DNA of 64,000 bases from Eledone cirrhosa (Eukaryota): the NCBI GenBank assembly GCA_964016885.1, contig OZ024765.1, positions 1,922,001 through 1,986,000 of the forward strand, in the 5' to 3' direction. The translations under genes and the position numbers were made by a program. Shown here in pieces: positions 31,728 through 31,793 of the stretch (position 1 is its first letter; the number at the start of each line of letters is the position of its first letter). The notes under the pieces were generated by a model. The model was not told where the DNA came from and searched no databases. It was given only the letters and a program-made list of their open reading frames with translations.

Positions 31728-31793
31728 TATTTTATCTGATGAGGACGTACTGTTGAAATAGCTCAGTACCTCTGAAATATGTATAATAAAATA
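31728..31793 (+). ncRNA. Hammerhead ribozyme motif, family C variant
   Basis: UAUUUUAU-CUGAUGA-GGA C GUACUG(loop)CAGUAC C UCU-GAAA-U AUGU AUA-AUAAAAUA. Confidence 0.78.

Follow-up and report, generated by a model that had tools for sequence, protein, structure and literature searches.

At positions 31728-31793 of a 64,000-nt stretch of the Eledone cirrhosa genome (contig OZ024765.1; the whole stretch is hereafter called the window) lies a hammerhead ribozyme whose stem II is interrupted, three base pairs from the catalytic core, by a C·C mismatch. Is this mismatch a decayed pair, or is it maintained, and if so, what might it do? Hammerheads of Penelope-like retrotransposons are described as being without the tertiary contacts that speed up other hammerheads, as cleaving poorly in vitro and as having an unsettled function (PMC4209133, PMC8557442, PMC11167929). 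Our combined findings make it highly probable both that the motif is such a hammerhead and that its mismatch is under selection.

Hammerhead copies in the window and their host element

The copy at 31728-31793 (+) is a type I hammerhead with an intact core and belongs to the GGA subfamily of family C. An 8-bp stem I (31728-31735 with 31786-31793) flanks the core (CUGAUGA at 31736-31742 and GAAA at 31774-31777), and stem II (31743-31773) consists of three pairs (31743-31745/31771-31773), the mismatch C31746·C31770 and six further pairs (31747-31752/31764-31769) with an 11-nt loop; folded without flanks, the stem II pairs have predicted probabilities of 0.91-0.98. Stem III, including the cleavage site, spans 31777-31785 and contains the near-palindromic AUAUGUAU (31777-31784), and cleavage is predicted after A31785. 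An AATAAA hexamer at 31783-31790, found in family-C copies too, overlaps or follows the cleavage site and the 3' strand of stem I, and may be a chance occurrence in AT-rich sequence.

A scan for type I hammerheads found seven family-C copies in the window, all with three pairs followed by C·C. Besides the 31728 copy, these are a copy of the AAG/ACACCA subfamily at 6874-6938 (+) and its inverted twin at 6651-6715 (−), both with intact cores, in arms (6603-6789 and 6800-6986) that are 99% complementary; a copy at 14361-14423 (+) and its inverted twin at 14183-14245 (−), in arms 14130-14298 and 14308-14476; and two minus-strand copies with intact cores, one at 23168-23233 with a decayed outer stem II and one at 40753-40818 with a bulged extra U in outer stem II. 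Stem III in family C is an 8-nt palindrome, a feature absent from the initial annotation of this DNA. That annotation had compared three copies, whose stems II are as it gave them: AAG-C-ACACCA/UGGUGU-C-CUU (6874), AAG-C-GUAUC/GGUAC-C-CUU (14361) and GGA-C-GUACUG/CAGUAC-C-UCU (31728), each accompanied by an 8-bp stem I and with C·C at the fourth stem II position. Its statement that the core is kept fails for the 14361 copy, which like its twin reads CAAA, with the catalytic G12 changed to C. Across the genome G12 is replaced in 1,089 matches, spread over subfamilies, against about 48,000 intact copies with cytosine opposite a pyrimidine (C·Y) at position 4; the loss in 14361 and 14183 is private decay. 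That nearly every pair changes was correct for 6874 against 31728 (seven of nine pairs, six of them on both sides) but overstated for 6874 against 14361 (three of eight), which have identical core-proximal three pairs, and for 14361 against 31728 (five of eight). All changes among the three copies are transitions.

Other families are also represented. A hammerhead with a 4-bp stem I and stem III AUGAUCAU lies at 7187-7244 (−), and its stem II has three positions, C·C and a helix, as in family C. A further family is represented at 16627-16701 (−) by a hammerhead-like motif, in which stem I has 8 bp, stem III is ACCUUUGGU and stem II consists of four pairs followed by an internal loop.

The 31728 copy sits in the 3' end of a 5'-truncated Hydra-type Penelope-like element that runs into (TA)n (31667-31837, +); with the TA tract included, 31667-31892 is 86% identical to a longer copy, L071. 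Copies L071, L072, L073 and L074, reached by following the GGA subfamily upstream, are collinear at 89-92% from a GIY-YIG-type frame into a 1.9-kb AT-rich 3' UTR, and L071-L073 continue to a family-C hammerhead. L071 carries a reverse transcriptase (RT) frame as well and, starting in mid-RT, extends over about 3.7 kb to its 3' end. Translations of L071 and L073, in broken frames, contain the endonuclease motifs CNCRNKPDC (linker), LVYKCTV..YIG and CNLC..E..N..CLH. Pfam gave no match at E 0.1 for the RT and endonuclease pieces, so the element assignment rests on motifs. The Hydra clade is described as having a CxCX5C linker, CxxC/CxH around a conserved E and N, and (TA)n targets (PMC8557442); by its motifs and (TA)n targeting, the family-C element appears to fit this clade. 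A single cysteine lies between the putative GIY and YIG equivalents, an observation that bears on the absence of CCHH in Hydra elements. Of the RWK and DKT motifs of the N-terminal part in this clade, DKT was seen by eye in the related element L111; the family-C copies analysed begin past that region. Copies are 5'-truncated, often inverted, and terminate in (TA)n 50-150 nt beyond the ribozyme.

Penelope open reading frames upstream of hammerheads in L032 and L038 were rejected as a link between ribozyme and element, as they belong to separate insertions. In L038, positions 1645-4212 (+) hold an open frame of 856 aa; it belongs to a different Penelope-like element, shows RT and C-terminal GIY-YIG motifs, and is flanked on its 5' side by a partial copy in inverted orientation. 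Downstream of the ribozyme, T(C/T)GAGTGCT is common to families C, B, C' and F (seen in L072, L038, L022, L041, L036, L102, L131 and L151-L159), and an ACTC able to pair with this motif often lies upstream of it. This tail is a candidate protein-recognition hairpin and a possible sign of common descent.

Conservation of the mismatch across the genome

We searched the 3.0-Gb genome with patterns that fix parts of stems I and III and are thus uninformative on variation there. Family C produced 14,329 matches with a strict pattern and 50,541 with a relaxed one, against none in a reversed control, so the motif is not due to chance. C10.4, the 5' base of the mismatch, is present in 48,183 of the 50,541 matches and missing in 2,358 (4.7%). 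C·C, together with a few C·A, accounts for 27,652 (~55%, by subtraction) and C·U for 20,342 (40%), the latter nearly all in one subfamily with stem III AUGCGCAU, and the change from C·C to C·U left stem I unchanged; C-G is found in 189 (0.4%). The initial claim of a conserved C-C mismatch therefore stands for the 5' C and its position, but not for C·C as an invariant pair: the conserved feature is C10.4 opposite a pyrimidine. Among the first 100 matches listed per search, those without C10.4 and those with C-G were scattered over subfamilies, with a few near-identical copies at most. No subfamily with a repaired, paired position 4 was seen, which makes selection on the mismatch likely, as does the retention of C10.4 with scattered exceptions that resemble the decay of catalytic G12. 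The exceptions at both positions look like neutral decay after insertion, the source elements having kept both bases.

We compared 27 hand-picked subfamily representatives, those outside family C being chosen for carrying the mismatch. Position 10.4 is C in all 27 and 11.4 is C in 24 and U in three; every representative also has a purine at 10.5 and pyrimidines at 11.5 and 11.4. Their stem II regions range from 20 to more than 100 nt, with the mismatch fixed relative to the core, and pair 10.3 occurs as four Watson-Crick types (G-C, A-U, U-A and C-G). Within family C the representatives' pair changes at positions 1-3, 5 and 6 are all transitions, except that one has U at 10.1. When 22 of the representatives are aligned (A1; five long-loop ones left out), C10.4 is the sole invariant column outside the core and stem III. 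Double changes occur there in six of eight stem I pairs, all seven stem II pairs and one of three stem III pairs, and covariation supports three stems, closing at stem I, relative to a shuffle control that ignores relatedness. The build of three pairs, a 1x1 loop and a helix is real, as initially described, and persists over far more divergence than the window shows.

Families whose stems I and III differ from those of family C also have C·C at pair 4. For family B (GGU-C/C-ACY, 5-bp stem I) the genome yields 7,319 matches, and the first 100 listed comprise, by eye, 96 C·C, two U·C, two C·U and no paired position. Seven of ten family-B copies (L151-L160) share almost the same start about 115 nt upstream of the ribozyme, a 5' boundary that suggests a short non-autonomous element of ~300 bp. 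Family D, whose stem II region measures about 100 nt, has C·C in 10,686 of 10,973 matches. Family F served as a prediction test, the sole copy at hand having G-C: it has 858 matches, and C10.4 is present in all of the first 100 listed, opposite C in 95, U in four and G in one (by eye). Altogether, at least 69,000 pattern matches in this genome belong to families with a C·Y mismatch.

An unbiased sample of 60 evenly spaced 10-kb stretches (600 kb), scanned with no requirement at position 4, contained 52 hammerheads of at least 14 families and none in the reversed control; if typical, it points to a genome total of the order of 250,000. Of the 52, 27 had an unpaired position 4 (21 C·C, four C·U, one U·C and one U·U) and 18 an unpaired position 1, with one or two for each of positions 2, 3, 5, 6 and 7. 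Among the 39 sampled hammerheads whose stem II region is at least 20 nt long, 14 have no C·Y. A related element (L032 and L143) carries a C·A mismatch at position 3 in each of the two copies seen; its hammerhead has a CCGAUGA core variant and a 95-nt stem II region, and lies ~380-400 nt past the endonuclease frame. Relative to the endonuclease of the GGA subfamily, that of the C·U subfamily is 50% identical and that of family D 38%, and elements without the mismatch are at a similar distance (37-43%). In endonuclease trees, the C·Y carriers as one clade received a p-AU of 0.125 (11 of 19 rows used), a value that neither establishes nor rejects such a clade.

Possible roles of the mismatch

Stem III is palindromic in all 27 representatives, the scan having required a palindrome, and its predicted probability in the monomer is 0-0.15 in eight of eight representatives. 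For the 31728 copy it is ~0, with an intermolecular duplex predicted instead, and the double hammerhead is predicted at −21.8 kcal/mol versus −17.2 kcal/mol for two monomers. On these folding models, the ribozyme is predicted to cleave only as a dimer formed through the palindromic stem III. Tandem copies in one transcript would pair their palindromes into a double hammerhead, which would process the element RNA. A five-unit tandem array of family F, with a period of 1.31-1.32 kb (G000:C1:130888437-130893754), is as expected of rolling-circle copying and could supply dimer partners.

Stem II would be so long that its terminal loop could not come to lie next to stem I. Three pairs from the core, the 1x1 loop would provide a distorted site at about the height of the contact between loop 2 and stem I in canonical hammerheads, in which loop 2 follows a 4-bp stem II and contacts residue 1.7 (PMC11875169). 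The initial annotation had proposed that the mismatch makes a tertiary contact with stem I. In its base-specific form this proposal is unlikely, because no stem I base is invariant among the 27 representatives, four lineages (families B, C', F and G) have a stem I of just 4-5 bp, and the switch from C·C to C·U left stem I as it was. An A conserved at position 1.6 (23 of 27) was rejected, being frequent also in families without the mismatch. A contact with stem I as such is still conceivable, as the mismatch is tied to the register of the core, the loop and outer helix vary, and the canonical contacts are analogous; the mismatch may dock on stem I, at its backbone or minor groove, or on the other ribozyme in the dimer. 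The whole explanation, namely a dimer-type Penelope hammerhead whose C·Y is a selected structural element docking on RNA backbone, is tentatively our preferred one, although it falls somewhat short of being probable. That the role is a sequence-independent, backbone-level RNA contact within the fold is likewise a real possibility that we would not call probable. It is weakened by the long-stem-II hammerheads without the mismatch that still spread in this genome, by the little helix that a 4-5-bp stem I leaves for docking, by the related element whose mismatch is a C·A at position 3, and by the work of Cervera and de la Pena, who tested one minimal Penelope hammerhead, itself without the mismatch, and detected no hidden tertiary contact (PMC4209133, S6B).

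The stronger proposal, that C·Y is a new tertiary stabiliser which replaces the loop-loop contact and enables dimer-type hammerheads to cleave at physiological magnesium, is rather unlikely. If true, hammerheads thought to be nearly inactive would cut under physiological conditions of magnesium. C10.4 is held about as tightly as the catalytic G12, and thus offers a one-base handle on the function of Penelope hammerheads.

The mismatch may alternatively act as a brake or hinge that weakens the three core-proximal pairs, leaving the ribozyme mostly off until dimerisation or a chaperone intervenes and thereby sparing uncut template. We consider this doubtful. The mismatch costs ~5.4-6.5 kcal/mol relative to C-G, and adding the proximal helix is marginal (−3.6 to +1.0 kcal/mol, unfavourable in six of the 27 representatives), as a brake would have it. 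Inserted copies, moreover, extend beyond the cleavage site, so the template was uncut or re-ligated there, and uncut RNA was the main substrate of an Anolis Penelope element in vitro (PMC11167929). However, a brake would require no constancy of position or of the C itself, no subfamily seen has a fixed purine mismatch at position 4, and the mismatch is retained with very weak proximal helices (families F and C') as well as with GC-rich ones.

A specific upstream strand that might switch such a brake fares no better. The motif GGTAYGTC, present in most family-C subfamilies (GGTATGTC at 31709-31716, +, in the 31728 copy), stands 10-31 nt from stem I; only in some subfamilies could it pair with stem II, on its 5' strand. 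In two window copies folded with a 40-nt flank, pairing that included C10.4 was predicted to abolish stem II. As a general cause of the mismatch this was rejected: the motif shows no covariation with stem II and is missing in families B, C', D and F; in folds with a 60-nt flank it pairs C10.4 in only two of 25 representatives, mostly no more than in shuffles. An alternative type III fold through the upstream GUC was also rejected, as it has no stem I by eye. Introns are known in Penelope terminal repeats, and GGTAYGTC upstream of family-C stem I resembles a 5' splice site. Family D generally, as at L115:9047-9174 (+), carries within its long stem II loop a putative intron-like segment: GTATGT is kept, the preceding bases vary, and a T-rich tract and TACATAG follow ~45-65 nt later. 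Splicing there, if real, would shorten the stem II loop of the ribozyme.

Another possibility is protein recognition. Here the C·Y loop and the next purine-pyrimidine pair would be a mark read by the RT/endonuclease or by a host protein, with little catalytic role, a proposal that we regard as unlikely. C·C mismatches are known as protein or ligand sites, for example in thymidylate synthase mRNA, and the occurrence of C10.4, purine 10.5 and pyrimidines 11.5 and 11.4 in all 27 representatives resembles base readout in a widened groove. The short family-B copies with their shared 5' boundary also retain the mismatch. Nonetheless, the mark is unchanged where the element proteins have diverged to 38-50% identity, and the conserved GAGTGCT downstream of the ribozyme is an alternative candidate site. 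In addition, in the Anolis Poseidon element, from another clade, a truncation to +20 of the ORF, starting at stem II, did not prevent insertion in vitro (PMC11167929), which makes stem II dispensable for insertion there.

Inertia, by which an ancestral G11.4-to-C change was tolerated and stayed unrepaired because repair is a transversion and source elements are few, is improbable: C10.4-G11.4 in 15 of 25 published Hydra families (PMC8557442, by eye) means that a single change yields C·C, family-C stem II changes at positions 1-3, 5 and 6 are nearly all transitions and independent lineages are few (about six), but the neighbouring pair 10.3 underwent double transversions, and the easy C-to-T change at 10.4, often a CpG and mutated in 4.7% of copies, was never fixed.

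Comparison with known hammerheads and elements

Canonical type I hammerheads (Rfam RF00163, Schistosoma type) have the same core and three-stem junction; unlike them, the copies here have neither a 4-bp stem II with terminal loop 2 nor an internal loop 1. Rfam searched with 31700-31815 returned ten matches at E up to 10, none of them a hammerhead, and for the whole window the 150 matches listed of 300 are microsatellite-driven and of miRNA type. Rfam missed the 31728 copy because of its mismatch and long loops, and descriptors with strict stems would miss C·Y hammerhead families. A pattern scan of metagenomes gave 24 matches, none with a stem I, and all were discarded as chance. We found no description of a position-4 mismatch in the literature searched; the survey of Lunse et al. 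(2017), reportedly the largest of these hammerhead variants, was outside that search and may show the feature. The architecture, initially called possibly undescribed, is overall that of the known dimer-type Penelope hammerhead, and it is to the mismatch build that the claim of novelty can still apply.

In the Penelope dimer-type hammerhead, helix III is short and palindromic (Cervera and de la Pena 2014, PMC4209133). Like family C, that hammerhead is of type I with an intact CUGAnGA/GAAA/UH core, a long helix II and a palindromic helix III, and it lies in a terminal repeat with thousands of truncated and inverted copies. Helix II is longer than canonical here, with 8-9 pairs plus the mismatch in the three copies first compared. 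In contrast to the published consensus, the representatives have no extra nucleotide after A9 and G10.1-C11.1 in five of 27 only; both are consensus traits that several published members are without (PMC4209133, PMC8557442). The 8-bp stem I of family C and the fixed C·Y 1x1 loop at pair 4 are further differences. The consensus in PMC4209133 has no pair-4 mismatch marked, and among the rows examined by eye in its alignment S3 (56 rows) two have one (U·U and C·A) and none has C·C.

Hydra-clade hammerheads (Craig et al. 2021, PMC8557442, File S2) lie near the 3' end, their stem III is palindromic and their 10.1-11.1 pair is often non-canonical, as here, and the elements share the C-terminal GIY-YIG-type domain, CxCX5C linker, CxxC/CxH and (TA)n targets. 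By eye, none of the 25 families listed there has a pair-4 stem II mismatch, and those with C10.4-G11.4 mostly have short tetraloop-capped stems; six short family motifs from our set were absent from the supplement text (PMC8557442). At more than 3.6 kb, of which the 3' UTR makes up 1.9 kb, the family-C element also exceeds the size of less than 3 kb that is usual in the Hydra clade (PMC8557442).

Non-LTR retrozymes carry type I hammerheads in repeats related to Penelope terminal repeats (PMC7229834; bioRxiv 10.64898/2026.07.22.740005). The 1.3-kb tandem array of family F is retrozyme-like, whereas family-C copies are 5'-truncated ends of a protein-coding element rather than short tandem monomers. 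Both the kind of ribozyme and the kind of retrotransposon are already known, and what would be new is the conserved C10.4·pyrimidine at pair 4.
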